A DNA stretch of 64,000 nucleotides, taken from contig BCKZ01000022.1 of assembly GCA_001600815.1 (NCBI GenBank), positions 90,982-154,981 of the forward strand, read 5' to 3'. The notes beneath the pieces are model-generated. The model did not search any database. It saw only the letters and a list, made by a program, of their open reading frames with translations, and had not been told where the DNA came from. Below, in pieces: positions 37,501-63,662 of the stretch. Positions within the stretch are counted from its first letter, which is position 1. Each line of letters begins with the position of its first letter. The position numbers and the translations under genes are program-made. Source of the stretch: Alloascoidea hylecoeti (taxonomy: Eukaryota).

Positions 37501-38430
37501 GAGGCGGAAGGCTGGATAGGACTTCTTGGGGAATTATTAACTAAGGTATAGATGTATGTTTTGTAAGGAAACCTTTCATTTTGTAAGCTGTTGCTGAAAT
37601 TTTAATTCGGGTTATAATTATCAGTATTATTGCTGTATGTCAGCCAGGTCTTGGAAAAAACGCGTAATATTGCATGAATTGTAAATTCTCCATTCAATAT
37701 AAATGATTGAGAAATACAGGACGTCCATTTTATAATAAACAAAGGAGAACTTGGGGTGGTTCAACTTCCGTATCTTCGTTTGATAGAGTGAAATTACTCA
37801 CCAAAAATATTCCAAAGGATGATATTGAATTTTTACTTGATATAACAAACGAATCACCATTTGAAGAAAAAGAAGGAGATGATGATAAATATAATGTAGT
37901 TGGACTATCTGAGACAAATAAGTATCCTGAAGTTGATAAATAATCCTCAATTTTCCTCAATTTTGTTCGATATAATCAAATAGTAGTAAAGCCATATAAT
38001 ATTGAATTAGATAATTCATTTTCAGAAGAAATAATGTCATCATACATCATTATGTTTGAACCAAACACCACATATGTATTTATTAGAAGAGTTGAAGTTT
38101 ATCAATCTATCTATCATAATATATACTCAAAAACTTATTTGAATGTTTGAGAATAATGTACTATTAATGTAATATTTGTGAACAATATGAAGTTGTTAAT
38201 CCGTTGTAATTGTTCGCAGATAATATATGTTGATGCCGTTATGTACGAACAATGTGAGATAGATATAATTATAGAAGAAAATGATAGTATTACATTTGAT
38301 TTTTATATATTTACTTAAATATACGGTTGTCATACTTTGAATGTTTGTATATTTTGCTTTCTTATAGTTAATCATATAAACCTGTAAACGAATATCCTAA
38401 TAGGACAGTCAACCAATTTAGTAATAAATC

Positions 38431-38713
38431 TGCCGGACCGATTCCTTATAGGTATATTCATCGTAGGTACAGTACGAATAACTTCAGGCTGTTAAGTTAA
38501 TAATCATCATTTTTTTGAGAGCAGCCTAGAGAGAATGTTTGATTTACCATGCATATCCATATGTCCATGGCTTACATGACTGAATAATTATGAAGAAGAC
38601 AATTTTAAATATTTATAGATTCAATAGAATTACCTAAGAAAATCAGTGATACCGCTTATCACATGCGTATATTCATTTATAATTATAATTATAACTGAAA
38701 TGAGCCATCTACA
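38431..38713 (-). mobile_element. LTR-like repeat, copy 2 (solo or rearranged LTR)
   Basis: On the minus strand it starts TGTAGATGGCTCA and has a possible CA end at 38431. Inverted homolog of 22408-22675. No target-site duplication visible. Confidence 0.75.
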
Positions 38714-40356
38714 CCACAATAAATAAGGCTAAGGAAAGTGAATCTAATAACAGCAGACCAAAATATAAAGATGTTAAAGAACTTTATGATGAAGCACAAC
38801 AACTTCAGACTGATTTAGATGTTAGCATGATTGAGGAATATGTTAAAGAGGTTGAGGAATGGATTAGAGCTGGGAAAAAGGCATTTGGTAAAAATAATGC
38901 AGCATCTCATGTATTACAATCACACTTAACACATGTTAGATTAAAAAATGAGGATGCCTTTTCATTGACTGATACATATGAAGCAGGAGAAGAAAATTGC
39001 ACTAAAGATGAAGAAGATTCCATAATGAATGAAGGTGAAAATAAAAATGGAAATGAACCAGAAATCAGAAACCCTNAAAAAGTATTAGAATTATTAAAAG
39101 TTAAATTATTTTGTTTTTGTAGAAGACAAGAATCTGGTTGGATGGTTCAATGTGAGAAATGTCAAGAATGNTATCATGCGAAATGTTTAAAATTAAGTAA
39201 AGCAAAAATGACTTCTGATGAAAATTTTATTTGCCCAGTTTGTGATTTTATTTCAATTTACCCACGAGAATCAAGCAGGCCAACATTAGAAGAATTGGAA
39301 ATTTTAGAAGAATCGGGGAAAGATTTATTACTTATTCCTCAAGAATTGAATATTGTACGATCAATTATTGAAACCGCGAGTAAATTCATAACATTTTTTA
39401 AAAGGGAATTAAAATTCGATGAAATTGAAAATACATTTAAATGCAATGATGTTAATAAACTTAAATTCTATTTGAGAAAATTTGAAGGTTCAGAAATTTT
39501 ATTTGCAAATGAGACTGATTTATTAAGACAAATGATTTANAAACTTGATCCTGTTGGTAATAAACCTCCACCTATTATTAATGTTTCAAAATCAATAAAA
39601 AAACATCGACCCACAAAACTTCAAAAACTAATGAATGAATTAGGTGTCACTGATATAAGAGATATACCACCTAAATATTCATATCAATTTAGATATCTTG
39701 GTATTAAATTCAATCATAGATATCAATCTAACTATGATGAATCAATTGAGGTTAAAGAAGAGATGGTATTAGACAATGATATGCCAAGTAGTAGTAGTGG
39801 AGTGATCTCTGGCGATTCTGATGTTTGGATGGAGCCTGTTGATGCCGAAAAGTCACTTGAATCTACTAACTCAGTTCCTATACCAATAAAATTGGAATCC
39901 AAACTACCTGAGAAAAATAACTCTGAAAAACAATTATCTATGGAACAGAATAACGTACAACATTTAGAAGTTCCAAATACCATTGTTAACCAGGATACAG
40001 TTGACATTCAATATTTAAACTTCAAACCTCCAGATAATACCGATGAGAATCTAGATATTAATATNGATAANGCTAAACCAACATATCCAAGAACTAATGA
40101 TTCTATGAAGGATTTAGAAGCGGGTCCTGGAAAAGGAAATGAAAACAAAACCTAAGTGTAATTAACAGGTAATTAATTGNATTTAGAGTTTGAAATGAAG
40201 AAAATGTATTGAAAAAGCAATTGTAAGAAGTGCAATAACAACAGCAACAAAAGTTAATGAAATTAGTATTTTTACTAAAGGTTAATAAAAACAACAAATA
40301 ATTTTAAAGAAAATATAATATAAAGAGATTTAAAAATTAAATCTTGAAAGAGCCTA
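38714..40356 (+). repeat. Inverted repeat arm IR1-L (copy of ECM5 3' end and terminator)
   Basis: Reverse complement of 53560-55202, both 1643 bp, including six Ns at mirrored positions. Confidence 0.95.
38827..40155 (+). pseudogene. 5'-truncated duplicate of ECM5 (PHD-containing C-terminal 442 aa)
   Basis: Translation is identical to the last 442 aa of 53761-58191 and lacks JmjN, ARID and JmjC. Confidence 0.85.
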
Positions 40357-40624
40357 GTTAAATGGATATACATCATTAACAAATGGTTCATCGTAATGAT
40401 AATTTCAGAAGACAAAAGAGTTCACATAGAAATTCATTAATAAAAAAATTCGTCAAATGATACACACATTGTCAATATTGATTGATAATGAAAACGAATC
40501 AAAATCATAATAATTGGCGCAAAAAATAAAGTTTTGTAATAGCAATATTGCAGTTCTGCTATTTAATTTTATTTCAGCCAACTTCTCTTTTTAATAACTC
40601 GCAACTTCTCCACAGTATTTAATC

Positions 40625-42262
40625 ATGACTGCTTTGCCTCTTGTACCTGGTAGTACACATATAAGAAATTCAGGAATCTTCCCCTCTGGGTATTCAGTTG
40701 TCAGGTCTTTCGATTCTCATGAAATCCTAGTGAATGCAAACATACATAATTTATCTCCTATCCGAAAACCGCAAGACCTAAACACAAAATTCTCCATTTC
40801 TTTCGAAAATGAAAAATTATTTTATGTCCCAGGTGAAACTATTAAAGGTTTCGTTAATCTGGATCCTAAAACTACCTATTCTTACGACCATCTTAGAATC
40901 TCTATGGAAGGAGTCGTCATGGATTCCAGTGAAAGGAATTTTTTTTTAATGTTCGAAAAGTTCGATGATACATTTCCAACTGCTACCCCAGGGCTCGATT
41001 GCCCCAACGATAATGTAGCTTTAGCCGGTTAAAGTTATAAGCTACCGTTTAGTTTTATTGTTCCTGAGAAATTATCGGAACCATGCCACGATAACTTTCT
41101 CCATAGTCGGTTACCTCCAAGTGTTAAAGGCAATTTTAAACAGCCATTCATGAGTTTTAGTAATGGTACCCACAATCATATTCACAGATATTCCATTCCC
41201 AGGAGTAAAGAATCTCAGAAGAAATGGAAAATGAACCGTGAAACTCCTATGCACAATTCCGAGGAAATGCTTACATCTCGTATTTGCCGCACCTCTGCAG
41301 GAACAACTTTATCTAATAATTTGGAGCATGATTCATATGTCCCTGGCATTAGTGCTCGGATAATTTACTATATTTCCGCCACAATTAAGACTAAATCCAA
41401 CCTTTTGATGAATCCTTATGAATATGAATATGTGAACCCAACACTGCTCACCTTTCACTGTTTTTACCTTNNACCTTCCTNCCCTGCTCTTCCTAATAAT
41501 CTTCTTCAGCCGTATCTCGACACTACCAAATACGAATTAGCTGAAAATTTCAATAGACTTGGGTATTCGAATGACAATATGGAATTCAAAACAATTCATT
41601 ATATAGATCCCAAAACTGAAAAGTTATTATTCTATAAACAGTTTGAGTGGCTAACGGAGAAAGAAAATTATTGTACAGATCAAATGAAGTCAACGATAAA
41701 AGTGATTACACATCGTCCTGATCCAATATTATGCTTACCTAAAAGTATAACTACGATGCCTTATGAGTTCTCCTTGACAGAGCGACTTCAACCCCCAATT
41801 GATAATATTCCATTAGCAGCGGATAATAAGTGTATATATCCATTGAAGTTTATTTATAGTCCAATATTAATCGATGGAGAACTACAGCCTCCACCGTTGT
41901 TATCAAATATACAACCATTCTTACGGGCACATACTATTATTGGGGTTTCAATTTCAAGTTTAGACTTTTATAAAGATCTAAAACGATATCCCCTAGATTA
42001 TAAGACACGGGAGCTTAATATTGGTCAAAATCGTGATCCAGGATCCTTAAACAATGATAAATATGACCATTCCGATATCTGGCTCAAAGATATTTACAAT
42101 TGGAGTCAATGGACACCACAATACGATGAAATAACAGGTAAAACCATATACGAACGAGTTTTAGAGATTGAAATACCTTCACTTACTTCTAATTTGGTTC
42201 CAAGTTTCCACTCGTGTTTCCTATCAAGATGTTATATGCTTCAACAGAAAAAGAACTTTTGA
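40625..42262 (+). pseudogene. Bul1-like alpha-arrestin (ubiquitin-ligase adaptor), interrupted by a nonsense codon
   Basis: The two ORFs are in frame across a TAA at 41030, where the paralogs have AAA. Motifs YVPGETIKGFV, LPFSFIVPE..C..HSRLPPS, LVPSFHSCFLSRCY. The C-terminus also looks truncated. Confidence 0.75.
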
Positions 42263-43152
42263 GTAGTTGTATTTCATGCGAGTCATCGAAATGTGAAAAG
42301 AAAACTACATAACTGTATCTAATTGTTGAGAAAATCGTCATTATCAAAGGTAATTATATTCATTTTTTTATACCGGAACTGGAAATATTTATATTTGCAT
42401 ATATACTAGGGGCCGTTGTTAACTATCATGATTACATTCAGTATATAGTTTATATTATTATATTTTTATATATTGTTGATTTTATTGATATTGCTATCAG
42501 TGTTGCTATTGTAGAGTTATGTTATTTCTAGCAAAATACTGGGATATAAAGTAAAGTACATGTAAGTATAAGAAGGACATTATTAAAAATTGGGATCATT
42601 TGATTAATATTCATTGGATGGGTATTGGATAATTGTAATGTCGTTCATAATCATTTTAGAAACGTCAAATTTTAAAAGCAATTTTATATTTCTTTTCGGT
42701 AGATGTGTTTCTTCGAATTCACGCTATATTATTTATAGAAGAGTTCATACTATGCCCAGTAATATTGGAGACTTAGTTGTGAAGCAATAATAAGCGTTTA
42801 TAGTTTATTGTTAATAAACTTTTATATATATGTAAAATTTAACAAGATATGCATTATCGTTAAACACACAAAAGTTTAAAACTATAAACTATCATTATTA
42901 CTTCTTCAACATTGAACATTTAGTTAAAGCACAAATACATGCTAAAGTTCAAAGTGCCTGTTCTCTCAGTTGCGCCAAAAAGCCAATCGACTCTTAAGTG
43001 AACTGTTTTAAGAGTGTAATATATCCAACAATACATAATAAATTATATAGTTTAGAAATTGTTTTATATAAACAAAGAAATCCGCACAATTTAATAATTA
43101 ACTTTGTTAGTAAATACTTGACGAGAAAAAATTATCACACTCTTTTTCTACA

Positions 43153-45050
43153 ATGCCTAATCATGGATTATTTGGCTCTTCCCTCCAACCCTGATGCAAC
43201 ACCTAATACACTCCTACAAAATGTATCAAATACCACGATACAAATATTAATCCAATACGTCGGAACAAAAATCATGTACGATTGCAATCTATATGTGGAG
43301 AGCTCACCATGAAAAAGTATTTTATGCTCCAGGTGAGACTATTAAAGGGTTTGTTACCCTCATTCCTAGTACGAAATTTTCTTATGATCGGTTTACCCTA
43401 TGTATGAAACAATGTACTGGTAACTATGAGAGCACCGAGTATCAGAGGAATAAGCAAATAAACAATGGATTTATATTACTTGAAAAGTATCATGATACAT
43501 TTCCAGAGACAACTCCTGGAATCGATTGCTTCAAAGATAACATTGCCTTAGCTGGTAAAAAGTATATGATACCATTTAGCTTTGTTATTCCTGAACAATT
43601 ATCGGTACCATCCACAGATAACTTGCTTCATAAACGTTTATCTCCGAGTTTTGGGGAGAGTTTCGAAGTGCCATATATGAATATCAATAAATATTCCACC
43701 AATCAGACGTGTATCTATACCATTCCTAGACCTAAGAAAAGTTATTATGGAGTAGATAATTTGGATACTTCATATTGTTCATATCATACTTGTCGTACCT
43801 CTGCAGCTGATGTTTTATCTCAAAATTTTAAACCGGATACTTTCCGCTCAGCTTAACCCAAATCCGTTGGGTTTCGTAACTATTATTATATTGAAGCAAT
43901 TAATTATATTGAAGCAATTATCAAAAACCATATCAGAACATCTTAACACTAAACTATTAGCAAAATCAATAAAGCGTCTAATGACAGCTAAGAATTTCGT
44001 TATTTTACCTGTATATTCTGCACTTTCTTCTTATATGTTACAGTCATCTCTGGATATCAATAATTATATATCAGGTACTAATATATATAGGAATTCAGAT
44101 GAAAATATGAAATTTAAAACGATTCATTCCGTTGATTGAAAAACAGAGCAATTACATTTTTATAAACATTTTAAATGGTTAGGAGGAAATCCAAACTTTT
44201 GTTTGAACGGGAATTAATCCATGTCAACTATTAAAGTGATTATACCTCGTCCTTATCCAATACCATATCTACCGGAAGTGACATATAAAGGGAAAGATTA
44301 CACTTTTCACAGCTATAAACCAGGTTTCAAGAAATGTAAAAACCAGTTGACATATTATTTCCTTTGAAATTCATTTTCACTATCCTAGCGCTGTTAGTTA
44401 ATAATAATATCGATGGTTATGAAAAACTTAGTCTGGATTGGGTGATCGTAAACTTAACAAAGAAGATGTTTGCGATTTAAGTAAATGGATAGCATATAAC
44501 AATTTTAAGAATCGTAAAATAATATATCAAAGGATTTTAAACGTTAAAATAAACTTTCAATTTACTTCAAAAATATGTCCTAATTTTCAATCATGTATCT
44601 CATCAAGAAATTATGATATAAAATTTAAAATTGAATTTAAACCACAATCTCAACCATCAAATAAAAATGCGTTTAAATTTAAAAAAAAATTAACTACAAT
44701 AAAAACCATTTTTGGCTCTAATACTAACAGAAAGATTACTGGTTCAACTGAATCGAAAATGAAATATAACTCGTTTTCATCAAAGCGTTTATTGTCTAAT
44801 AGATATTGTTTTGATTTAACAGTCCCTATTGACTGTTTATTCAAAACAAAGGGTACTTTAGATATGTGTATGCTTTTACAGAAGACGAACTCTTGACTAG
44901 TCGTATATCCCATGAACCATGGTTACTAATGGGCGCAGACGTGGAACGTTTGAATGAGATAAATAAAAATGATAGATATTCATGGTAAGGAGATATGCCA
45001 ACAACTTTTGTAGAAGAATACATAACTATGGAATATTCCCGGCATGTAAA
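43153..45050 (+). pseudogene. Second Bul1-like arrestin, heavily frameshifted
   Basis: FYAPGETIKGFV, LAGKKYMIPFSFVIPEQL, HKRLSPSFG, CRTSA, KFKTIH, ICPNFQSCISSRNY spread over several frames. An 18 bp tandem duplication lies near 43884-43919. Confidence 0.8.
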
Positions 45051-45129
45051 AGGCCTTATCAGGATTCGGGAAGATAAGAATTAACTGAACAGAAAAATAT
45101 TGTCCAAAAATAGATTGGAGTGGTCTCAG

Positions 45130-45650
45130 GACGTTTGTGATGGTGTTGTATTAGTGACAAATGTTTGGTCGTTACAGGATCCGAATTTGGAATATATTTT
45201 CTCCACAATAGTCACACCAAGCCTTTCAACGTTAAAATATTTATAATAAGGAAGTATGGTCTCTAGGTATGGGCTGAAATTTGAAAGGGAGGTCGTGCTA
45301 CACTGTATAGAGTAGTTGATTCTAATAGCAGTCATACGATCCCATATACAGCTTCTGGAAGAGGCATTAAATGAAATTCATGAAGATATCATATTCATCC
45401 GAGATAGCATCCATTCATGACGTTAGAATGGCAATGAATTCGTTTCCTGAGAAGGAAATAGAAGTATCGGAGTGGCCGCTCCCTTTTATTCGGCCCCGAA
45501 TCCGATTGATATCTCTTCGAAAAAGTGCATCACAATCGCAAGGAAGTGATTGCCATTATGAGTCTTCCACATGGTGTAGAAGTGAAGAAGGACCTATTTT
45601 TGAGTCTCTTTCAAAGTATTAGGAAAGGACCTTATGGATCAGAATATGAT
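45130..45650 (-). mobile_element. hAT-superfamily DNA transposase remnant
   Basis: Minus-strand FYTMWKTHNGNHFLAIVMHFFE (cf. TxDxWTSxNxxxFLAITxHFI) followed by SFSGNEFIAIL..AISDEYDI (cf. HxGxNIA...LxEYxI). In-frame stops are present. Confidence 0.55.
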
Positions 45651-45990
45651 TGATCGTACACTTGAGTGGCAACCGTCTATGGTGTCAAGGCCGCCAATAC
45701 TAATATATTCTATAATATATACGGAACTTTAACATATTTTAAGAACAGGTTCTGTCTGGAGTATTAAGTAGCTGATTACAATTCTGCCATTTTTTAGCGT
45801 GTTCCACAGATAAATATGGTAGATCTGAAACTTTATAATTATCAATGGCATCAATTAATAACAGTTAACAAAACATGATCATAAATGATCATTATAGCTT
45901 AAGGGATTGTAATTAACATATAAAATGATACAGAAAATTGATCAAAGATTAATAACATTAAATTATTTATTCATTTATTTTTAAAAAAAA

Positions 45991-47096
45991 TTATTTCAAA
46001 TTTTTCCCTTTAATAACATTAACCCAAGTAGGACCAATATTGGCAGCAGCAGCAGTTGCACCTAAAACTCCAACAGTCAAGTTATCAAGACATCCAGTTT
46101 CAATTGACCAATGTGCAGTAAGAGGTAAATAGGATAAATTAATAAGTAAATCTTTATACCAATTTGAAGGTAAAGTTTTCAAAGTAATTATTGAATTATT
46201 AATAAAACCTGATTGATTTTTCTTTGATTTTTCAGTTAAATTTGAATTTGATTTTAATGCATTTGATTGATATAAATAATTTGTTAAATAATCTTTTGAT
46301 AAACGAATTAATTCCAAAATAACATAAGCAGCCCAAAATCTACTACTCCAACACCAAAGTGCCATTTCAGTTTTAGCACTAATCTTAATGATTTTATGAT
46401 TACCTAAATAGGCAATGTTTTCCAAAGGTTGATAAAAGATTAAAGACCAAAGTTTCAGATTATTTAAATATCTATCAAATTTAGGAGGGGGTGGTAATGG
46501 GTTTACTTTTGTACCATAATTACCAGATTGAATATCACGAATTATAGCAAATAACCAGTCGATTAAAGGAACCATACCCCATAAACGATTGAAGATTCTA
46601 ACATCAGATATAAGACTAGAAAATGTAGCTAATCTTGTTGAAATAGGAATGGTTGAAACCGCAGTAGAAGCAGCAGAACCTATGTCAGCATATTTTGAGG
46701 CACCACCAGTTAAAGTAGTTAAAAGTAAATACTTTAATTTTGCAAATGCTTTAGGATTGAAACCAAGCGAAGTTATGAAGGATATAAGGGATGGGAAAGA
46801 AGGAAGTCTTGAAATAAAAGACTGCCAATCATACTTACCCAGTTTTTTCAAGATTTCAGCGAGGATTTGAAGAGAATAACCAACCAAGGCCAAGGTTGTA
46901 TCTAAAGAAGAGGCATTCGATAACAACCTTTTGAAGTTTTGGAGTTTAGATTAGTTATGGTGTGTTACTAAATGCATATAATATCAACATACTCGTTAGC
47001 TCGTGTAGTTCTTAAACCATATTTCGCTTCCAAGAGTTTCAGCAAATAAACTGTTTTGGATTGAACCTCAGTGACTGGCTGTTGAAGAGAGGACAT
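45991..47096 (-). CDS. Pex11-family peroxisomal membrane protein (Pex11C-like), two exons
   Basis: Exon 1 47096-46993; intron 46992-46928 (GTATGT...AACTAAT...AAG); exon 2 in frame. Motifs SDVRIFNRLWG, YQPLENIAYL, WSSRFWAAYV, YLPLTAHWS. Confidence 0.85.
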
Positions 47097-47320
47097 GTTG
47101 AAGAGAAGAAGAAGACAAAAATAAAATTAAAGAAAAGGAGGTTTATATTAATATAGCTATGAATGGGGATCGGGTGAGCTTGATATTTGGAGGTTTCCTT
47201 CTCCTTTTGCCCAACACTCGGGTCACCGGTCCCAGTTTCGGGTGCGACCAACCGGGCTTGCTTAAGGAGGGCGTAAAGAGGCAGAATGCAACATCATCCT
47301 TCTTCTCAATCAACCAAATA
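47097..47320. promoter_or_regulatory. Compact, GC-rich bidirectional promoter between the PEX11-like gene and calcineurin A
   Basis: Only 224 bp separate the divergent ATGs; the stretch is locally GC- and CGG-rich. Confidence 0.55.
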
Positions 47321-49033
47321 ATGTCACTTCCTCAGAATTCGGCAATTACGCCACTTAAAATGGAAAATGCTCTGAAACATTTGAATAAAAAGAAACATAT
47401 TGATCAGGATTCCATAAAACCAAAAACATCAAATCCCACGGTGTACGTTACCGATGAAGGTGAAGAAGTAGTTACTTCTGACAGAATAATGGCTGGTGAG
47501 TTTTAAATCAAACTAACCATCTTAAAAATTATACTAATCATTAATTAACTAGACATTCCGGCTCCTGCTACTAGAAAACCAACTGATGATCAAGTGTTTC
47601 TTCCAAATGGTCTTCCAAACACTGATTTCCTAAAATCACACTTCTTTCAAGAAGGTCGTCTAACAAGTTCTCAGGCTTTACGAATCTTAAATTCCGCAAC
47701 TGATCTCTTAAAAACTGAACCAAATTTACTAGATATTCCAGCCCCTGTTTCTGTATGTGGTGATGTTCATGGTCAATACTATGATTTAATGAAACTTTTC
47801 GAAGTTGGTGGAGATCCAGCTACAACAAATTATTTATTTCTTGGTGATTATGTTGACAGGGGTTATTTTTCAATTGAAGTTTTATTATTATTATATTCTT
47901 ATAAATTAAATTATCCAAATACTTTTCATATGTTACGTGGTAACCATGAATGTCGTCATTTAACTGAATACTTTACATTTAAAACTGAATGTATACATAA
48001 ATATTCTTCAAGAATTTATAATGTTTCAATTGAATCATTTAATGCTTTACCACTATCTGCAATAATGAATAATCAATTCTTTTGTGTTCATGGTGGTATA
48101 TCTCCTCATTTAAATACCTTGGATGACATTAGAAAATTAGATCGTTTTAGAGAACCTCCAACAAGGGGTCTAATGTGTGATTTATTATGGGCTGATCCAC
48201 TTGAAGAATATGATGATGATGATAATTTATCAGATTCTCACTTTGAAAATAATGATGTAAGAGGTTGTTCCTATTTTTTCACATATAAAGCAAGTTGTGA
48301 TTTTTTAGAACGAAATAATTTATTATCAATTATAAGAGCTCATGAAGCACAAGATGCTGGTTATAGAATGTATAAAAGAACAAAAACAATGGGATTTCCA
48401 AGTTTATTAACAATGTTTTCAGCTCCAAATTATTTGGATTCTTATAATAATAAAGCTGCTGTTTTAAAATATGAAAATAATATTATGAATATTAGACAAT
48501 TTAATGCTTCTCCACATCCATATTGGTTACCCAATTTTATGGATGTATTTACATGGTCATTACCATTTGTTGGTGAAAAAGTTACTGACATGTTAATGTC
48601 TATTCTAAATATTTGTACAGAAGAAGAATTAGGTGATGATGGTTCATCAACAATTGCAGTTACTGCCGTTGATGAAGAATTAGAAGCAAAAAGAAGAGCA
48701 TTAAGACATAAAATAATGGCAATTGGAAGAATGTCAAGAATGTTTTCAGTATTACGAGAAGAAGCTGAAAATGTTAATGAATTAAAATCAGCAGCCGGTG
48801 GGAAATTACCATCAGGTACTCTAATGCTTGGATCAGAAGGTATTAAAAATGCAATTCATTCATTTTCTGATGCTAAAATTGCTGATTTAAAAAATGAAGC
48901 TTTACCTCCTGTTAAAACAAAAGAAGAAATTGATGCTGAAGTTCAAAAGAAATTATCTAAAATTAAAGATTCTGAAAATGATAAAAAATTAGTATCACTA
49001 GCAAGAAAATTAAGTAATTCAATGAAGAAATGA
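47321..49033 (+). CDS. CNA1: Calcineurin A catalytic subunit (PP2B), two exons
   Basis: Exon 1 47321-47495; intron 47496-47552 (GTGAGT...TACTAAT...TAG). Motifs [38 protein letters not shown], calmodulin-binding helix and autoinhibitory NEALPP. Confidence 0.96.
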
Positions 49034-49639
49034 TTTATTTTCAATATAACAATATTAATTATAATGTATCGGTTTAAAAACTCACCGATTATACCTAAAT
49101 TTATCTAACTTGTTCACTTCAAATCTTTTTGTTATTTGTTATTATTATTTAAATATATCACTTTTATATTTATTAATGTAATTAATAATGCTATTTATTA
49201 TATTTGTTTATAATTTTTGTGATGCTTGATTTTTATTTTTTTCTTATATTTAAGACATTATTTTAAAGGGAATTGACTTTTTTTTTTGATTAATATGATT
49301 AGATAATGCAATGCAAGCTTAAATAAATCAATCGTTTACCACTGTGAATGTCGTAAGACTTATTATATCTGTAGTGAATCCCAAAATTAAAATGCAAACT
49401 CTATCAAGAATGCCAGCGGAGAAGAAAATACAATTAATCAATAACTTAATCAAAAATGAAAAAATTTCTCTTGAAAGTCTCAATAATCATCACTCTTAAC
49501 GTTCTTTAATAATTTGTAAGTTGAATAAAGTGAATAGATTTGAAACAAAAGTAAAACATATTAAAATAAAGAATAAAAAAGGTAAAAGGCAAAATCTGAA
49601 ATCTTTCGATCTTACAATTACTCGATTCATTATTTTCAA

Positions 49640-51280
49640 ATGTCAAAATTCTTTTTTGGTGACGACTTCGATGTCAAAACCGAAGTCTTTAAGGCTACTC
49701 AAACTGTATTATCCGCTGATTCTTTGGTAAAATTCAATGAAGGTTATTATTTCCCGGTGGTTGAAAACTGGTTAAAGGTTAAACTCAAAACCATTATTCA
49801 ATCTGATGTTTTCCATATTGATGAATTTGTTACTTGTACCTCTGTGAACCGCTCTCCAACTAACTTCTGTCTTACTCTCGAATTCTTACTCAACCTCCGT
49901 TTCTCTGAAGAAGTTTTAAAAGACTATGAAGATGAGTACAATGGTATTGAATTATATTGAACTTTAAGAAATGATTATAAGGTTCTCGATAATTTTACTA
50001 GAATTGGTCTTCTGCAAAAGTATTTTACTGAAACTGGTAAACAAGGATGTTTAACAAAAAACTTTAATGATAAGGTGTATTTAATGATTCAATATTTTCC
50101 TCACTTACAAAAATGTATTCCGCTTATTGCTCTATTCAAAATTTCTAACGTTCAAAGGGATCAGGTTCTTCTTAGAAAAAATCTTATCGATTCAACTGAA
50201 TTTGCTAACAAAACATTGGAGGAAACAAAGTACAATGAAATCGTTGCTTTTGTTAAAAACTTAACAAAGAAAGGCATTATTGCTGATTTCACAAGTAATT
50301 TGGATACTATTGATGAAGTGAATTACCATGAAAATAATTCAAAATTTTTAAAAAATGTACGCTGTTATCGTTGTCATAAGTTTGGACACTACATGGACCA
50401 CTGTCCTATGAATAAGTTTCGCAAGAACCCTAAAAAATATCATGAGATTCAATACATTAGACTTCCCCTTGATACAGATGTTCACAATTCTACCAATATT
50501 GAATCTGAAGACGACGAAGAGGCGAATCTCATTGAACACGAAGAAGAGGTGTTTCTTGTTTCTGATGTTGAATTTATTATTGCTCCTTGTCATGTTGTCT
50601 CGGACAAATCTATTCTGGATAATGTGAGTGTTTCTAATACTACAATTATTAAAGGATTTCGAATCTTGAAGGAGACTTAACTCTTGGTAATTTGTGTCTA
50701 TCTAATGTGAAAGTTATGCGTAACACTAATAGAAACATTATTTCTGGTGATGTGCTATCTAAAAAGATTGAACTTGACAGCAACAAAGTCAATAATAAAT
50801 TCAACATCAGAAACAAGAAACACCTCTTTTTCATGTTCAATGAGATTCTTAGCTCCAATGATAACTTGTTACAAATTAAAGATTTCACTTTAATAGACCA
50901 AAAACTTGATATATTGAATTTTCTATTCAAAGATGTAATCCCTTGTTAGACAATCAAAAATATAAACTAAAACTGTATACTCCGAAAGTTGTTTGTGTTT
51001 TATTCCGGTTTTCGGTATCCCTGTGAACAACAAGTAAATGAAAGGGGACACGAGAAACAAACGATCTTCAAAAGAAAACACAAACTTTAGCAAGAATTTC
51101 TTTAGTAGAAAACACAATAATCAGTAGTAACTCAACTGAAAACGAAGAACTCTCTCAGACATGTCTAGATCTACTTTCACGACTTGTCTAGTACTCAGCT
51201 CGAACGGTAACTTGTTAATATTAAAGATTTCGCTTGTTTAGAAAAAAAAACTTGATAGCTTGATTTCTTTCTCCAAAGTG
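49640..51280 (+). mobile_element. Degenerate Ty1/copia gag-protease region
   Basis: ORFs at 49640 and 50075 are in frame across one TGA (GIELY*TLRNDY, copia gag-like). CCHC knuckle CYRCHKFGHYMDHC and decayed protease motif ..CHVVSDKS. Internal rearrangements. Confidence 0.75.
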
Positions 51281-52220
51281 AACTATTTAACTAAAAACAA
51301 AAACACCTACCTCAAAATATATAAACTATATGTATCCCGTAAGTTTGGAGATTTCTCCCAGATTTGCATAAGGATGTCCATCGTAGTATCACCAGAACTT
51401 ATGAATACCTGAACACCAACCCCAGCTTAACATATACCATGCTAAAACTCAACACATCTTATTACCCTCCACTTTCTCCATTTTCTTTAATAAAATATCA
51501 CCCAAAGCAGTAGACAGTGTCTCTGTTGGAGTTATTGAGCTCTCCATTCCATTCGTCATCGGAACGACTATTTCACAGTAGTAATTACTGCGTATTTTAA
51601 CGTCGAACCGACCCTGAAAGTTTTGTTAGGAAGTCTAAGCTCATCGCATGTGACCTTACATTTCAAACGTAACTTGAGATCGATATCACACACAACAACG
51701 GATTTTTAGATGAAATTATAGTAGCATCCTTAAGAGTCCCCAATATCCATTCTAGATACTTCGTATATCTCAGTGTTGTCAGACGCTTCGACTACCTTTT
51801 TATCAACAACCAATCCTGTAGCTTTTTCTGTCCAGGAAGGAATGGGGTCAGTGGTTCATATGGTAAGTAAGCATAGATCCATACATATTTTACCTTAGTT
51901 ACCGTTACCGGTATCCATACTTATTATATAATTACTAGTTCCTAGTTCCTACTCCCTGTTCTGGCTTTCCAGGGCCTCAATATGTATGCAATGCATATAT
52001 GCATATATTCCAATTCTGGTATAACGTAAAAATCAACTTATCATAAAGCATCATATGTTTAATACTTTATAAATCATCGGCTAAAATTTGCTGTTCAATA
52101 TAATCATCTTCTTTATTATTATATATGTAAGCTATTATATATGCCACTCCTTATAGGTATCTTAATATTAAACTATATAGTCCAAAAAACCTATAACCTT
52201 AATTATAGATTTAATTCTAT

Positions 52221-53140
52221 AATTGAAACCCCAATAAGAGTATGTACCCGTAAGAATGGTTGTATATTTGATAACAACGGTGGAGGCTGTAGTTCTCCAT
52301 CAATTAATATTGGACTATAAATAAACTTCAATGGATATATACACTTATTATCCGTTGCTAGTGGAATATTATCAATTGGGGGTTGAAGTCGCTCTGTCAA
52401 GGAGAACTCATAAGGCATCGTAGTTATACTTTTAGGTAAGCATAATATTGGATCAGGANGATGTGTAATCACTTTTATCGTTGACTTCATTTGATCTGTA
52501 CAATAATTTTCTTTCTCCGTTAGCCACTCAAACTGTTTATAGAATAATAACTTTTCAGTTTTGGGATCTATATAATGAATTGTTTTGAATTCCATATTGT
52601 CATTCGAATACCCAAGTCTATTGAAATTTTCAGCTAATTCGTATTTGGTAGTGTCGAGATACGGCTGAAGAAGATTATTAGGAAGAGCAGGGNAGGAAGG
52701 TNNAAGGTAAAAACAGTGAAAGGTGAGCAGTGTTGGGTTCACATATTCATATTCATAAGGATTCATCAAAAGGTTGGATTTAGTCTTAATTGTGGCGGAA
52801 ATATAGTAAATTATCCGAGCACTAATGCCAGGGACATATGAATCATGCTCCAAATTATTAGATAAAGTTGTTCCTGCAGAGGTGCGGCAAATACGAGATG
52901 TAAGCATTTCCTCGGAATTGTGCATAGGAGTTTCACGGTTCATTTTCCACTTCTTCTGAGATTCTTTACTCCTGGGAATGGAATATCTGTGAATATGATT
53001 GTGGGTACCATTACTAAAACTCATGAATGGCTGTTTAAAATTGCCTTTAACACTTGGAGGCAACCGACTATGGAGAAGCATGGTTCCAATTTCTCGGGAA
53101 CAATAAAACTAAATGGTGCTTATAACTTTTACCAGCTAAA
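52221..53140 (-). pseudogene. Internal fragment of the Bul1-like arrestin (inverted repeat arm IR2-R)
   Basis: Near-identical reverse complement of 41020-41953. Both ends are missing and there are small deletions at its 5' edge. Confidence 0.9.
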
Positions 53141-53760
53141 ACTATCTTTCCAATCTATAAGAAGTATTAATCATCAACTTATTAAAGTGATAAGTAATAT
53201 TTAATTCACATGGATTTAATTAGTGAAAATATAGAGATTTAAAGATATATATTTTTTCAAACAAGTAAGTTATAACGCTATTGGAATCAAGAATTGAGAG
53301 GTTAGCCTTTGAATGATTTTTGGCCACTTCTTCATTATCTATGTATATTATCAAGAGACACATTTTTGAACAAAATGATATATCATTTCACGGTCATATT
53401 TATTTAGAGAGTTTTTGTTGCTAGTCGGTTATAGAGTAAAGTAGTAATATATGTTTATGGTTAATTTTGATAGATGCTTTTAATACACTTTCATAATTAT
53501 TAATTAATATGTATACTTTATGAATATTATAAAATACAAAATATACTACAATATATACTTAGGCTTTTTCAAGATTTAATTTTTAAATCTCTTTATATTA
53601 TATTTTCTTTAAAATTATTTGTTGTTTTTATTAACCTTTAGTAAAAATACTAATTTCATTAACTTTTGTTGCTGTTGTTATTGCACTTCTTACAATTGCT
53701 TTTTCAATACATTTTCTTCATTTCAAACTCTAAATNCAATTAATTACCTGTTAATTACAC

Positions 53761-56700
53761 TTAGGTTTTGTTTTCATTTCCTTTTCCAGGACCCGCTTCT
53801 AAATCCTTCATAGAATCATTAGTTCTTGGATATGTTGGTTTAGCNTTATCNATATTAATATCTAGATTCTCATCGGTATTATCTGGAGGTTTGAAGTTTA
53901 AATATTGAATGTCAACTGTATCCTGGTTAACAATGGTATTTGGAACTTCTAAATGTTGTACGTTATTCTGTTCCATAGATAATTGTTTTTCAGAGTTATT
54001 TTTCTCAGGTAGTTTGGATTCCAATTTTATTGGTATAGGAACTGAGTTAGTAGATTCAAGTGACTTTTCGGCATCAACAGGCTCCATCCAAACATCAGAA
54101 TCGCCAGAGATCACTCCACTACTACTACTTGGCATATCATTGTCTAATACCATCTCTTCTTTAACCTCAATTGATTCATCATAGTTAGATTGATATCTAT
54201 GATTGAATTTAATACCAAGATATCTAAATTGATATGAATATTTAGGTGGTATATCTCTTATATCAGTGACACCTAATTCATTCATTAGTTTTTGAAGTTT
54301 TGTGGGTCGATGTTTTTTTATTGATTTTGAAACATTAATAATAGGTGGAGGTTTATTACCAACAGGATCAAGTTTNTAAATCATTTGTCTTAATAAATCA
54401 GTCTCATTTGCAAATAAAATTTCTGAACCTTCAAATTTTCTCAAATAGAATTTAAGTTTATTAACATCATTGCATTTAAATGTATTTTCAATTTCATCGA
54501 ATTTTAATTCCCTTTTAAAAAATGTTATGAATTTACTCGCGGTTTCAATAATTGATCGTACAATATTCAATTCTTGAGGAATAAGTAATAAATCTTTCCC
54601 CGATTCTTCTAAAATTTCCAATTCTTCTAATGTTGGCCTGCTTGATTCTCGTGGGTAAATTGAAATAAAATCACAAACTGGGCAAATAAAATTTTCATCA
54701 GAAGTCATTTTTGCTTTACTTAATTTTAAACATTTCGCATGATANCATTCTTGACATTTCTCACATTGAACCATCCAACCAGATTCTTGTCTTCTACAAA
54801 AACAAAATAATTTAACTTTTAATAATTCTAATACTTTTTNAGGGTTTCTGATTTCTGGTTCATTTCCATTTTTATTTTCACCTTCATTCATTATGGAATC
54901 TTCTTCATCTTTAGTGCAATTTTCTTCTCCTGCTTCATATGTATCAGTCAATGAAAAGGCATCCTCATTTTTTAATCTAACATGTGTTAAGTGTGATTGT
55001 AATACATGAGATGCTGCATTATTTTTACCAAATGCCTTTTTCCCAGCTCTAATCCATTCCTCAACCTCTTTAACATATTCCTCAATCATGCTAACATCTA
55101 AATCAGTCTGAAGTTGTTGTGCTTCATCATAAAGTTCTTTAACATCTTTATATTTTGGTCTGCTGTTATTAGATTCACTTTCCTTAGCCTTATTTATTGC
55201 GGTTCCAATATTTGATAGTTGTTTAGTTATTGCATTATGAGCTTCCATTATTTCAAAAACTTTTAACCGTATTGATTCATCAACTGGGTACTTCATAGAT
55301 TGTTCACTAAGCTCAACAAGATTCGAAAACTTGATCTTTTTATTTTTATTGTCGTTATCTCCTGGTATTATAAGTCCCCCTGATTGAGATTCCGTTGATG
55401 ATAATAGTGGTGATAATAGCTCCTGGCCTTTTTTATTTAACTTATCACTTCCTGTTTTAATTGTAATTAGTTGTTCTAGCAAAGTTCTATCATAATCATT
55501 ATTCAATTTTCCCCTTTCAACTAATGAAATTAATGTGTCTCTATCTAGATTACCAGTATTTAAAGCGTACTTTGATTCATCGTGCCATTTCTTCCTCTTG
55601 GAAATTCTTTCCAAAACTTCAATTTCTTCAAGCTCCATATTAAATGATTTACCTAAATCAATCATATCTTCAATTTCCGTAATTGATTTATCATTATAAC
55701 TTTTTTCATTTCCATTGGTTCCAAGAATCATAACTTCAACACTATTTGAATATTGAATTATTTCATGAGCCCTTTCAATTAATAATTGTATTTCAGGTGA
55801 TGAAAACATTAATTTGGGAATTTCATTTATTAAAATTTGAAGTCCATGTTTACTCTTTTTGTGTTCATTAATTAATTCGTTACTAGCTGATTTATCTCTT
55901 TTATTGTTATTATTATTATTAGTGTTACCTGTTTTAGTTACATGGTGATTTCCAAGGCTATTAGCAATAATCGTTGATACTTTCTCAGCAGTAGCTCTAC
56001 TATTATGTTTCCTTGTTAAATATGATTGAGCCGATTCAACCCATTTATTAGCAGAGGAAACAAATTTCGATAAATCTTTAACCTCTTGTAATTCAACGGG
56101 TAATCTTTCTCCTTCTGTTAATAAATTCCTTAAAAGTTTTAATTGTGGTTTCATATTATCAGAAAGTGATGAATTAAATTTATTAATCCAATCACTTGGT
56201 TTAGCTATTTTATCCTTAACTATTTTAAATAATGATCTTAATTTCTCATCTGAATAAGTTAAAAATAATGTTGTAGTTATTATTGGTTTAATTGTAGATG
56301 ATGGTAATGAAGGTGATTTTTTTGGTTTCTTAAGTTTTAAATATTCATCAAGTGTATAAATATTTTTCCTATCATTTTCAATTGAACTAGAAACTATTAT
56401 TCTAGATAAAAAACTAAATTGTAATGATTCATCTGATATAAAATCCCAATTATTATTATTTTTATCTTTTGTATGATCACTTAGGTTATTATTACCAATA
56501 ACAATTTTTAATTTTGAATAATTAAGATTGCCTAATTCCTTTTTAAATTTTTGTCTATTTTCAAGCTCATCATTAACAATTTTAGTAATTATTGGCTTAA
56601 TCCAACTACATGTATCAACATCGGGACCTCTTTCTACCATCTCAACAATCAATTTAATCATTGAAAAAGCAGGTAAGATTCTTTGTTTTGATAACCATTT

Positions 56701-59700
56701 TTCAGATTCTAAACCATAGTTTATTAACCAATGCTCATCTTTTGGTGCTAAACAAACTTTTTCAATCACGTTAAATCCCAAGTTGATACTTGACCAATAG
56801 GATTTTGGAAAATTAACAATAATTTGTCCTGCTTGTTGATAAGTTACATAACACGTAATACCATTTTCAATTAAAAATTCAGGTGGTACCATAATATTTT
56901 GATTTTTATATTTAATCGGTATTCTTGTATCACAAGTTTTCATTAAACTTTCATCAATAAGTAAACCAGTTTGAGGGGTTCTTAAAGCTGGTTTACCATT
57001 ATTTTGATAATTTCTTTGTTGTTGTAATTGTTGTTGTTCTTTTTGTTCTTGCTCATCTTTAATCGAACTGAAATCTAAATCCTGAACTTGAATCTGTCGT
57101 AATTGTTTTTCTCTTTGTTTATTAGAATCTTGATTTTCAGTCATATCCAACCTTGAATCTAAAATATCTTCTAATAAAGCTTCAAATTTCTCAAAATCGG
57201 TTTCTGGAATTGAATAAATTATCCTTGAATCACCCAAATGATTATAACTTATTGAATACATAAAATGATCCTCTAAATGCCATGATTCAGTTGCAAATAA
57301 CATACCAGAATTAATCCAAGGTTTTGATAAAGTAGTTATTGGATCTCTTAATTCTGATAATAATGATTCGGAACAAATTGGTAAATTATTTAAATTCCAT
57401 TTATGAGCACATAATGCTGTTTTCTTCTTTGATGTTTCAACTGTGGGGAAACCTGATCCTTGAACCATAGTATTAATATTAGATCCATACTCAACCTCAA
57501 CAGGAGGTGCATCTAAATCTTTAACTATTTTCCAGTACAAATCCTCCCATTCAGTATCTGAAACCTCAGCAGTTGTCTTTTTCAATGGAAAATGTTCTCT
57601 GTAAAATTTTTCTTTAAAATGAATACTTTTATCATAAAATTGACGTAGATTATACGATGGAGCTTCCCTAGTTTCAAATTTTGAAGGATCAATCACCGGC
57701 AAACCTTTATGCCAATTTTTATAATCATATCCTTTTTTAGTAACATTACTATACGTCACCCACTGTCTATCTTCTAGACATTCACTATAATAGGACGGTA
57801 ACTCTTTCCTCTTAAGAATATCACGCTCTCTTAGATATTCAACTTCTGAACCATAAACCAATGGGATGACTTTCCTATCACAAAATACATTTGAATCCTT
57901 TTTTGGTGGTAATGATGATAATTCATTAGTATTATCAGTCGTTTCAATAGCATTGTCAATATCCATACTGTCATTATCATCATCATTCAACATATTTTCA
58001 ACCTTTAATCTTTTAAATGGGGTTTCTTCTCCTTTTCCATTCCCATTTCCATTATTTGAAATTTTTCTCTTTTGATGATTACCATTAATTAGTTTATTTT
58101 TATTTAAATCATCCTGTTGTTTGAGATATAAATCGTAAGGAAATATCAATTTATTATAAGCCGATTTTAAACTAGTTGATAAAGAAGTCATAATTTTCCC
58201 ACTATAACCTAATTCTCTACCAACTTGAGCCCATAATTTTTTTCTACATACAATTTCAAATCCACCACGTAATTGAACATAATTTCGTAAATGATATAAG
58301 TCAAGTACTCTTTTATCAATACTTGGAACTTTTGCTAATGAAGTTCCCCGATTTTTATGAAATTTATTTAATGTTGAGATGAATATTTCCTTCTTTTGAG
58401 ATTCTTCGAGTAATGAATTTAAATGTTGATGATGAGTTTTAAACCAACAAAGCTATAATAACAAAAATAAAAAAACATCATCAGTATAAATATATCATAT
58501 AAATATCATAAAAAAAGAAAAAAAAAAAACTTACTTCAGTATCAATACCAAAATTTGGATTCCAATCAGTTGGAGGTATAATCTTAACCATACCAAATTT
58601 TTCACCAATATCTCTAATTTTTGTAATAAAACCAACAGGATCTAAAAATTCTTCATTTGTAGGTCTAAAAATGGGGACTTGTTCAAGTTTTGAATTCATA
58701 ATTGAATGTGTTTGTGGACCACCAACTTCATTATTGTTACCATTAGTATTATTAGCATTAGTATTTGATGATGGTAAAATCATATAATTTTCAGCAATAT
58801 TAACTTTACTTTTAATTAAATTAACAGCTAGGGCAGGTGTAGCACGAGATCGTTGCTGTGGGTAGACAAAAGGAGTATAATGATGAGTTATTTGATTTGA
58901 AATCGGATTTATATTTGGACTTAAACCAGCATTTGGGTTGAGATTAGACATTGAAGAAGATGAGATAGGACCAGGTGGTGTAACACTAAAAGACACACTG
59001 CTACTACTGTTTCTAGAACGAGCGCCAGGTTTTGGACCAGGTTTTTGTCTGCCTATTGCCATTACTGAAGAATTTATAAATTGTGTGGGTTTAATTGGTT
59101 GTTGGATTTGTGGTTGATATGCTTGTGTGATAAATTGAGGAGGTCCTAAACCTGGGGGTGATATGCTCCTTGAAGATTGAACAAATGGTGAGGAGATTAT
59201 AGGAGGTGGTAAAGTAGATTGCATTGGTCCAAATGAAGAAGTCGAGGGAGCATCTGATAATAAATTGCATATATTTAATCGTTGTTTGGTATCTTCGACT
59301 GTTGATGGGTGATGATTGCCCCGACTTTCTAATTTTGGATGAGTGATATTTGAAAATTGTAATGGGATTGAAGGTTGAGAATAACCACTAGTTAAGCTGG
59401 ATATCCGAGGTAGTTTCTGGCCTTGTCCCTTATTTAATACTTTCCCCAGTCCTTCTGGATGTATTGAAGGTGAAGATGATTTAGTACTTACTGGTGGTAA
59501 CGAATCATTCATCTGATTGGATTGAGCCGATTGAGAATTTATGATATTTGCTATACCTAATGGACTCCTTGAGCCAGAATTCGATCTTAATGAAGCAACA
59601 TGAGTCAATTTATTTATACTTGAATTGGAATTGGAATTTTCAATACTATTATTACTAGTTGTTGATGTTGGACTATTTGAATTATGACCATGACCGGATT

Positions 59701-59731
59701 GATGTAAATTAATATCCGTGAAACCACTCAT
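53761..59731 (-). CDS. ECM5: Ecm5/KDM5-family JmjN-ARID-JmjC-PHD chromatin protein (~1960 aa), two exons
   Basis: Exon 1 59731-58535 (JmjN PIFRPTNEEFLDP..FGMVKIIPP.DW); intron 58534-58453 (GTAAGT...TACTGAT...TAG); exon 2 carries ARID, JmjC (VEYGS, WNLNNLP, WHLEDH) and a C-terminal PHD (CFC..CEKCQE.YHAKC..CPVC). Confidence 0.85.
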
Positions 59732-60575: not shown

Positions 60576-60779
60576 TTAGTATGCATTTCTATTGGATGAG
60601 CCATACGAATCGTTATTTGATGAACCATATAAGTTGTCTTCCTTGGAAGAACCATATGAATTGACATTATCGTTATTAGAACCATAAGAATTGTCATTAT
60701 CATTCTTATTTCCTCCATAAGAGTTTGAATTATCACGATGACTATTGTCTTTGTTCTTGTTACCACCAAAGAGACCCAT
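60576..60779 (-). CDS. Short DDR48-like hydrophilic repeat protein
   Basis: MGLFGG start plus about five SYGS/NNDSYGSS-type repeats; paralog of 62853-63662. Confidence 0.75.
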   Translation of the reverse strand: MGLFGGNKNKDNSHRDNSNSYGGNKNDNDNSYGSNNDNVNSYGSSKEDNLYGSSNNDSYGSSNRNAY

Positions 60780-62852: not shown

Positions 62853-63662
62853 TTAGTAGTCGTTATTATCCCTATTGGATGAACCATATGAGTTATCGTT
62901 ATTTGATGAACCGTATGAATTATCATTACCAGATCCGTAAGAATCGGTTTTGGATGATCCATATGAGTTGTCATTATTAGAACCGTAAGAATCATTGTTT
63001 GAAGATCCATAAGAATTGTCCTTTTTGGATGATCCATAAGAATCGTTGTTTGAAGATCCATAAGAATTGTCCTTTTTGGATGATCCATAAGAATCGTTGT
63101 TTGAAGATCCATAGGAATCATTGTTTGAAGAACCATATGAATTGTCATTGTCGTTATTAGAACCATAAGAATCATTGTTTGATGATCCGTAAGAGTTGTC
63201 TTTTTTGGATGATCCATAGGAATCATTCTTAGAAGAACCATATGAATTGTCATTATCATTATTAGAACCATAAGAATCATTGTTTGATGATCCATAAGAG
63301 TTGTCTTTCTTGGAAGATCCATAAGAATCATTGTTTGATGAACCATAAGAATTATCATTGCTACTCTTCTTAGAAGAACCATATGAATTATCATTATCGT
63401 TATTAGAACCATAAGAATCATTGTTTGAAGATCCGTAAGAGCTGTCTTTCTTGGAAGATCCATAGGAATCATTGTTTGAAGAACCATAAGAATCAGTGTT
63501 TGAAGAACCATAAGAATCACTCTTGTTGGAAGATCCATAAGAATTATCATTTCCTGAAGATCCATAGGAATTATCATTATCATTACTTCCTCCATAAGAG
63601 TTAGAGTTATCACGACGATTGTCGTTATCGTTATCGTTATTGTTACCACCAAAGAAACTCAT
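62853..63662 (-). CDS. DDR48: DDR48-like stress protein (SNNDSYG repeats)
   Basis: Almost entirely tandem NDSYGSS/DNSYGSS repeats, as in Ddr48. Confidence 0.85.
   Translation of the reverse strand: MSFFGGNNNDNDNDNRRDNSNSYGGSNDNDNSYGSSGNDNSYGSSNKSDSYGSSNTDSYGSSNNDSYGSSKKDSSYGSSNNDSYGSNNDNDNSYGSSKKSSNDNSYGSSNNDSYGSSKKDNSYGSSNNDSYGSNNDNDNSYGSSKNDSYGSSKKDNSYGSSNNDSYGSNNDNDNSYGSSNNDSYGSSNNDSYGSSKKDNSYGSSNNDSYGSSKKDNSYGSSNNDSYGSNNDNSYGSSKTDSYGSGNDNSYGSSNNDNSYGSSNRDNNDY

Follow-up and report, generated by a model that had tools for sequence, protein, structure and literature searches.

Two nested pairs of inverted repeats enclose 10,267 bp with the divergent genes PEX11 and CNA1 in the 64-kb stretch of Alloascoidea hylecoeti DNA analysed here (the window). 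Most likely, local inverted duplication with break repair recurs in this genome and the arms are its youngest scars: the inner pair (IR2) would be older and partly re-homogenised, the outer pair (IR1) younger. Rare passive inversion is possible. The geometry of the locus, the position of its symmetry axis, the two-copy state of IR1, the older analogues on the same contig (C22) and the location of the mating-type gene elsewhere are established. In its likeliest meaning the locus is a clean, young example of inverted gene fragments left behind by small inversions or template switches.

BLAST and a repeat search gave IR1 arms of 1644 bp with 2 explicit mismatches and 6 mirrored pairs of Ns, and IR2 arms with 97.1% identity, the inner 857 bp being free of gaps. 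Both pairs and the core of about 10 kb with its two divergent genes had been described in an earlier reading made from the sequence only, and our coordinates for the pairs lie within 4 bp of those given there. Domain matches (JmjN-ARID-JmjC-PLU1-PHD for IR1, Bul1/arrestin-like for IR2) also agree with its assignment of the arms to the 3' end of ECM5 and to an arrestin; ECM5 is the name it gave to the first gene. The symmetry axes fall at 46958 (IR1) and 47080-47087 (IR2), 125 bp from each other. The left outer junction of IR1 is clean at 38712/38713, and a shared 6-bp AGCCTA stands at the inner IR1 end. The spacers, previously called diverged, show no detectable homology: their local score of 24 is equalled by 267 of 400 real background segments and a relationship between them was rejected. 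Neither the 5' regions of the paralogues on contigs C10 and C24 (27 and 30 of 400) nor an nhmmer profile built on four copies of the family gave a significant match in the right spacer, and the profile found none in the inner flank. Past the inner end of IR2 a faint colinear match (42359-42400 versus 52036-51990) had a score reached by 0 of 400 background segments, in one of five comparisons. No tRNA and no Rfam family was detected in the window.

Features of the locus (positions in the window)
Feature	Positions	Strand	Description
ORF-free stretch (desert)	31582..38703		7.1 kb; adjoins IR1 left arm
276-bp segment	38437..38712		inverted 86% copy at 22409-22675, 15.8 kb apart; ends at base before IR1
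IR1 left arm	38713..40356	+	repeat search; 3' 1.44 kb of Ecm5/KDM5-like ORF and ~200 bp downstream
Left spacer	40357..41015	+	upstream region and 5' third of Bul1/arrestin-like gene; homologous to C10 paralogue and its upstream DNA
IR2 left arm	41016..41953	+	inside arrestin-like pseudogene
Second arrestin-like copy	43150..44900	+	frameshifted; tblastn with C10 paralogue
PEX11	45991..47096	-	one intron; ATG 47096 on symmetry axis
Calcineurin A (CNA1-like)	47321..49033	+	one intron; ATG 47321
Decayed retroelement-like debris	49377..51370	+	gag-like frame with CCHC knuckle, dispersed repeat pieces, 59-bp inverted duplicate
IR2 right arm	52221..53144	-	internal arrestin-like fragment
Right spacer	53145..53559		unique; no alignment to left spacer
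IR1 right arm	53560..55203	-	native 3' end of Ecm5/KDM5-like gene
Ecm5/KDM5-like gene	53761..59731	-	JmjN exon 58481-59731; ARID-JmjC-PLU1-PHD frame 53761-58452; Pfam and PDB KDM5 matches

Read evidence came from short-read contigs, and the depth check covered IR1 in four runs from three samples. IR1 has about twice the depth of neighbouring contigs in all four runs, contigs break at its left start (38717) in 4/4 runs, and a contig of X1 crosses the left junction without differences (38524-38746). The check on read depth that the sequence-only reading had proposed for the arms thus returned, for IR1, two copies and no single-copy artefact. Almost all Ns of the window lie inside the arms (19 of 20, that is 19 in 5150 arm bases versus 1 in 58,850 other bases), and 18 of them are mirrored. 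This mirroring means that the two arms do not come from independent assembly, and their near-identity is partly an assembly effect; the Ns probably mark differences between arms, which would amount to ~0.5% in IR1 and ~1.3% in IR2. An arm divergence of 0.4-0.5% would exceed 15-20 times that of run X4 from the window, for which 4 differences were found over ~16.5 kb of listed contigs. A 46-nt IR1 pattern had no match in metagenome_contigs, where records resembling the genome itself may be left out. Mirrored ambiguity letters call for caution, since they mean that "perfect" inverted repeats of short-read assemblies are a collapsed consensus.

A genome search returned one close full-length copy of the Ecm5/KDM5-like gene and exactly two close copies of its 3' end. 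The left arm of IR1 has no promoter, covers the end of PLU-1 and the PHD finger, and is probably a decaying copy. An intact version of the region is found in P0003, from another assembly, while P0001 begins at 39208 and passes over in-frame ATGs at 38827, 39025 and 39142. This start is best explained by a TGA allele at 39169-39171, within the PHD finger, that one IR1 arm, probably the left, would carry. Of the five coding N sites in IR1 three are necessarily non-synonymous given the P0003 residues, with alleles unphased. It had been argued that a crossover in IR1 leaves ECM5 intact. Given the probable nonsense codon this does not hold where the crossover falls within the outer 28% of the arm, so that not every flip would leave the gene unharmed.

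The arrestin-like copies are broken as well. The left pseudogene (40625-42262) has an in-frame TAA (41030-41032) and a premature end; the right copy is fragmentary and carries deletions. Divergence between the IR2 arms is mosaic: the outer 81 bp contain 5 substitutions and 3 deletions, whereas over the inner 857 bp 11 sites differ or are ambiguous (5/67 versus 11/857, Fisher p=0.004, arms unphased). The arms have therefore probably recombined, with one gene conversion tract in the inner part. Gene conversion, suggested before as the homogeniser of a palindrome, is probable inside IR2; the IR1 arms probably differ at ~8 sites. A homologue search with the arrestin-like fragment gave one 41% match and no alleles for the IR2 Ns.

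In a survey of 404 kb of contig C22 we found further inverted pairs of lower identity. One (83%) has copies 18 kb apart, another (90%) consists of a partial maltose-acetyltransferase-like gene copy 7.3 kb away that encloses an intact gene, and the third is the 276-bp segment. Together with IR2 (~98.7%) and IR1 (~99.5%) they form a series of 83, 86, 90, 98.7 and 99.5% identity, which is useful for studying inverted duplication in a yeast. The 276-bp segment was considered as a solo LTR family and rejected, there being one other copy only. In neither spacer does its continuation have a match (177/200 and 183/200 shuffles score as high), which leaves an actual inversion undemonstrated. A weak match with the inner flank (4/400) was discounted because it lies in low-complexity ATATGC repeats. 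No joint linking 22409-22675 and 38437-38712 occurs among 15 of the 27 joints, and thus no inversion polymorphism was seen there.

This age series, the excess of Ns in the arms, the non-synonymous N sites and the probable TGA all argue for break-repair scars, as do the arm divergence relative to X4, the clean left junction with AGCCTA at the inner IR1 end, and an arm size that fits the breakpoint duplications of up to 1.9 kb described in PMC1885836. The depth and the two close copies place unique sequence in two inverted copies near each other. A staggered-break inversion or a microhomology-mediated template switch would occasionally place, at a distance of 7-18 kb, an inverted copy of unique DNA, in many cases of a gene portion, and the copy would decay afterwards. 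IR2 would have arisen earlier, by inverted copying of a fragment of an arrestin-like pseudogene, and gene conversion would later have partly re-homogenised its inner 857 bp. IR1 would be a younger event that placed the Ecm5-like 3' end beside the same breakpoints, the orphan copy gathering mutations. One doubly staggered inversion yields interleaved and not nested pairs, so that the explanation requires two or more events or else a re-inversion afterwards. Two independent nested pairs with axes so close are unlikely, which counts against this explanation, and only a presumed reuse of breakpoints accounts for the concentric arrangement. The probable recombination between the IR2 arms also speaks against it. 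If the functional gene is taken to be under selection (p=0.08), IR1 and IR2 may be equally old; with equal rates p=0.01. Through ordinary homologous recombination of their arms the segment of 10-13 kb could flip, rarely and passively, with little effect on regulation.

The start codons of PEX11 and CNA1 sit on the symmetry axis, so a flip would shift them by just 20-724 bp relative to the desert. A replication origin at their promoter was considered for the axis; the coincidence may be due to chance. The desert does adjoin the left arm, as noted earlier, but it is the third longest gap of a contig with at least 15 gaps over 4 kb and is ordinary for that contig; the locus lies 130-146 kb into the 409 kb of the contig. 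The gag-like frame of the retroelement debris has a CCHC knuckle with a Pfam E-value of 0.098, and its repeat pieces are dispersed over many contigs without clustering; the element is presumably copia-like. The earlier failure to see a mating-type gene at the locus was correct. No MATalpha1, HMG or homeodomain match lies on C22, with 6 homeodomain and 22 HMG matches in the genome among the best-scoring candidates. MATalpha1 is located on contig C8 beside SLA2, with no flanking inverted repeat pair in the 40 kb examined.

That one arm is merely a duplicated single-copy contig is barely credible. Mirrored Ns show that a single collapsed consensus supplied the letters of both arms, inflation of inverted repeats by assemblers is documented (PMC6692504), and the depth check was confined to IR1; yet depth and the bridging contig already largely refute an artefact for IR1, and the IR2 arms carry 12 explicit substitutions and 3 deletions. 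The most serious competitor, still unlikely, is a passive recurrent inversion polymorphism like the FF region of Saccharomyces chromosome XIV, with an old inverted repeat kept alike by repeated conversion and occasional crossovers producing two isomers in the population. The probable conversion tract and the faint colinear match in and beyond IR2 would fit, an old junction would also start IR1 homology exactly at the end of the 86% segment, and FF arms re-invert at only 97.6% identity (PMC9731477), so 99.5% is ample. However, FF arms contain whole expressed gene pairs; here the arms hold an orphan 3' fragment, a TAA-bearing arrestin-like copy and a truncated fragment, at least one dead fragment per pair, with no obvious selection for identity. 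The spacers cannot be aligned, older C22 pairs decayed without homogenisation, and the probable nonsense allele persists in IR1.

We regard as very improbable a programmed non-MAT flip/flop by which PEX11/CNA1 would enter and leave silent chromatin or the Ecm5-like gene would exchange its tail. Two nested repeats made of gene parts do resemble FF2, truncated genes in the repeats are a listed trait (PMC6692504), and IR1 occurs in three samples. Against this, C22 lacks mating-type matches, both arrestin-like arms are broken, the desert is ordinary, the locus lies well inside its contig, and the starts would barely move, whereas flip/flop genes trade an expression site for a repression site. The non-MAT switch proposed in the sequence-only reading is accordingly unsupported, decayed pairs of the same geometry also being present on the contig. 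Similarly hard to believe is a non-MAT phase variation in which the segment flips in living cells and, owing to a stop codon in the PHD finger of the orphan arm, crossing over within the outer 28% of IR1 would reversibly toggle a chromatin regulator between full-length and PHD-less forms; if flipping were shown to occur and to be regulated, the locus would be a notable case of a yeast DNA switch unrelated to mating type. An inverted-repeat centromere or its remnant, arms surrounding a core, is equally doubtful. Yeast centromeres of this type have arms of 0.5-4.3 kb at 99-100% identity (PMC12711049), and the surroundings are gene-poor and littered with retroelements, but such centromeres coincide with long intergenic regions (PMC12711049), the core here has open frames for two apparently intact genes, and the repeat pieces are dispersed over many contigs.

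Among known systems, the flip/flop loci FF1 and FF2 of Ogataea polymorpha, Komagataella phaffii and Ascoidea rubescens, as described by Krassowski et al. (2019; PMC6692504), share kb-scale inverted repeats that include truncated genes, and FF2 also has two sets. Unlike in these, no MATa or MATalpha gene lies at the segment ends or nearby, the enclosed genes are at the axis instead of the ends, and no telomere or shown centromere adjoins an arm. Inverted-repeat centromeres (PMC12711049) match the arms in size and identity, but not the 10-kb core with two intact genes or the coding fragments in the arms. The Saccharomyces FF region of Salzberg et al. (2022; PMC9731477) likewise places a non-MAT gene block between gene-derived repeats, with conversion between arms, probable here inside IR2, and with arms that collapse at twice the coverage in short-read assemblies. 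It consists, however, of one uninterrupted 4.2-kb repeat with whole sporulation genes, genus-wide conservation and both orientations documented, unlike the arms of 1.6 and 0.9 kb described here, which are gene fragments split by unrelated spacers. Similar to our locus are the Drosophila inversion breakpoints for which Ranz et al. (2007; PMC1885836) set out the staggered-break model: parts of unique protein-coding genes, up to ~1.9 kb long, recur there in inverted orientation at two breakpoints close to each other and decay by substitutions and deletions, with breakpoint reuse; decay and reuse are presumed for our locus. In Drosophila an outgroup proved the inversion, which is putative at our locus; here the span is only 10-13 kb and the two nested pairs are probably of different age.

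Self-comparison of the window confirmed the layout proposed in the sequence-only reading: two nested inverted pairs, an outer one (IR1) and an inner one (IR2), enclose about 10 kb (10,267 bp) with the divergently arranged PEX11 (ATG 47096) and calcineurin A (CNA1, ATG 47321) genes, 224 bp separating the ATGs. The genome is yeast-like (24.8 Mb in 136 contigs; contig C22, of which the window covers 90982-154981, has 409 kb). IR1 contains the 3’ end of a KDM5-type gene (domains JmjN-ARID-JmjC-PLU1-PHD) for which we adopt the label of that reading, ECM5; exactly two close copies of this 3’ end exist genome-wide. IR2 is a portion of a Bul1/arrestin-like gene whose family is dispersed in the genome.

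Inverted pairs at the locus and elsewhere on contig C22 (window coordinates unless marked C22; L031 and L032 are contig excerpts)
Pair	Left arm	Right arm	Length or identity	Distance	Remarks
IR1	38713-40356	53560-55203	1644 bp		window self-comparison
IR2	41016-41953	52221-53144	97.1%		window self-comparison
a	22409-22675	38437-38712	86%	15.8 kb	one other copy only
b	C22:297936-298860 (L031:3936-4860)	C22:306207-307113 (L032:2207-3113)	90%	7.3 kb
c	C22:365225-365613	C22:383736-384124	83%	18 kb	several genes enclosed

The arrestin-like family is expanded and diverged, with many copies on C1, C3, C4, C10, C11, C23 and C24 as well as in the window (40625-44900), where both copies are broken. In the JmjC domain of the Ecm5-like protein (minus strand, ~56790-56830; ~460-470 in P0003, a full-length prediction from another assembly) H-x-E is retained (WHLEDH), and FPKSYWS stands against FPKAYHS in the aligned demethylase. 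Under the usual assignment of ligand positions, the third iron ligand seems to be missing, so that the protein probably has no catalytic activity. Tandem repeats of the SYGSSNND type occur in two related genes or fragments (60592-60849 and 62853-63731), presumably hydrophilin-like, and a 180-bp tandem duplication (88%) lies at 24819-25180 in AT-rich, gene-free surroundings.

Copy number was assessed with contigs of four runs aligned to 21000-40064: X1 and X2 from one sample, possibly the source, X3 from a second sample and X4 from a wood-decay metagenome. All four have a contig whose first base is 38717, just after the first mismatch of the arms, and the IR1 contig has about twice the depth of comparison contigs (X1, 106.5 versus 55.5-70; X2, 35.3 and 47.7 versus 18.3-24.9; X3, 20 versus 4.6-9.5; X4, 19.4 versus 6.9-8.8). 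The arm contig of X1 and X3 measures 1633 bp, ending just short of the mismatch at 40350. Among the contigs listed, one of X1 (38524-38746) spans the left junction without differences. IR1 is really two-copy.

Of the 20 Ns in the window 19 fall within 5150 arm bases and one within the remaining 58,850; 18 form mirrored pairs. Explicit arm mismatches sit near the arm ends, the Ns mid-arm. In our interpretation a single collapsed consensus was used to fill in both arms during assembly, and the Ns mark differences between the arms; such collapse in short-read assemblies is described in PMC9731477. Because Ns are read this way, IR1 would differ at ~8/1644 sites and inner IR2 at 11/857. The residues of P0003 at the five coding N sites are E, W, Y, M and K; for the codons of E, W and M no synonymous change is possible. 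P0003 itself stems from a different allele or carries an error, because its residue 923 (~55424, outside the arm) is K versus Q in the window. Another prediction, P0001, was called on a contig of 1826 bp, the length of the X4 arm contig. It starts at 39208 despite in-frame ATGs at 38827, 39025 and 39142, and from 39142 to 39208 a single base is ambiguous, in the codon TGN (39169-39171). This gene call suggests that one arm probably has TGA there, inside the PHD finger. If that is the orphan left arm, a crossover within the outer 28% of IR1 would leave the Ecm5-like gene truncated; for this part of the arm the proposal that crossover leaves ECM5 intact would fail.

The spacers between IR1 and IR2, described earlier as diverged, do differ, but without detectable homology. 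The left one is native sequence, the upstream region and 5’ portion of the arrestin-like gene, and is shared with a C10 paralogue. The right one is unique sequence that does not align with the left (a score as high was reached by 267 of 400 background segments). An in-frame TAA interrupts the left arrestin-like gene at 41030-41032, where the right copy and the paralogue have none; the right copy covers an internal part of the gene and has three deletions. Derived states occur in both IR2 copies. The outer 81 bp of IR2 show 5 substitutions in 67 aligned bases versus 11/857 inside (Fisher p=0.004), a mosaic that speaks for earlier recombination of the two arms and points to an older duplication in which a conversion tract formed later. 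A faint colinear match past the inner end, one of five comparisons (0/400 background segments as high), fits the same history. The IR1 borders are abrupt: the outer side joins a 276-bp segment cleanly and the inner side shares six bases, AGCCTA.

Comparing 404 kb of C22 with itself by BLAST showed further local inverted pairs, for three of which (a-c in the table) copy number was checked; multi-copy repeats, palindromes and short inverted pairs without a copy-number check were left out. In pair b, part of a maltose-acetyltransferase-like gene is duplicated in inverted orientation, with a large intact gene in between and a shorter, older fragment close by. IR1 and IR2 are thus the youngest members of an age series in which the older pairs (83-90%) simply decayed. 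C22 also has short palindromes at 176095-176247, 275249-275436 and 402547-402840 (154-294 bp, 86-96%). Within the window, at 49377-51012, a gag-like fragment splits a dispersed repeat that runs uninterrupted on C12, C14 and further contigs; the ends of the fragment bear small inverted pieces (50524-50582/50790-50848, 59 bp, 97%), another template-switch-like scar.

The nested repeats are a real feature of an ordinary kind, and we regard them as probable scars of break repair. Gene fragments would have been copied by staggered-break inversion or microhomology-mediated template switching; PMC1885836 describes partial gene copies up to ~1.9 kb at breakpoints, and breakpoint reuse. Because a single such event yields interleaved pairs, we infer that the nesting took two events with breakpoint reuse, or else a re-inversion. 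A recurrent inversion polymorphism of FF type (see below) is unlikely, though it deserves more weight than the other alternatives. X4 and the window differ at 4 sites in ~16.5 kb of the unique contigs listed (0.024%), 15-20 times below the inferred divergence of the arms; this speaks against exchange being frequent. The suggested homogenisation of a palindrome by gene conversion is consistent with the IR2 tract. An inverted-repeat centromere is very improbable, and an assembly artefact, against which the doubled depth speaks for IR1, slightly more so.

A programmed switch is no more credible than the centromere. As noted earlier, the locus lacks a MAT gene: among the best candidates scored, the sole MATalpha-HMG match is on C8, adjoining SLA2, and none of the 6 homeodomain and 22 HMG matches on C22. 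No inverted pair flanks MATalpha1 in the 40 kb of C8 examined; a near-perfect palindrome of 821 bp (97.9%, AT-rich motifs repeated inside; L017:1867-2683, G000:C8:361867-362683) lies ~5.7 kb upstream of it in a gene-free stretch. The left arm does abut a 7.1-kb ORF-free stretch, but this is ordinary for C22, ranking third among its ORF-free gaps, of which at least 15 exceed 4 kb and the longest includes an N run. The symmetry axes (IR1, 46958; IR2, 47080-47087) lie within ~360 bp (46958-47321) of the PEX11/CNA1 promoter, which may reflect chance or symmetric replication forks.

In flip/flop systems, according to PMC6692504, inversion moves genes from an expression site to a repression site and vice versa. 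Here, in contrast, flipping displaces the PEX11 and CNA1 starts by just 20-724 bp, versus a distance of ~8.5 kb from the gene desert, and the locus has neither a MAT link nor switch logic. Passive inversion by homologous recombination between the arms is possible. Its closest precedent is the FF region of S. cerevisiae chromosome XIV, a gene block between inverted repeats 97.6% identical that, according to PMC9731477, re-inverts over evolutionary time but stayed unchanged over ~53,800 mitoses and 950 meioses.
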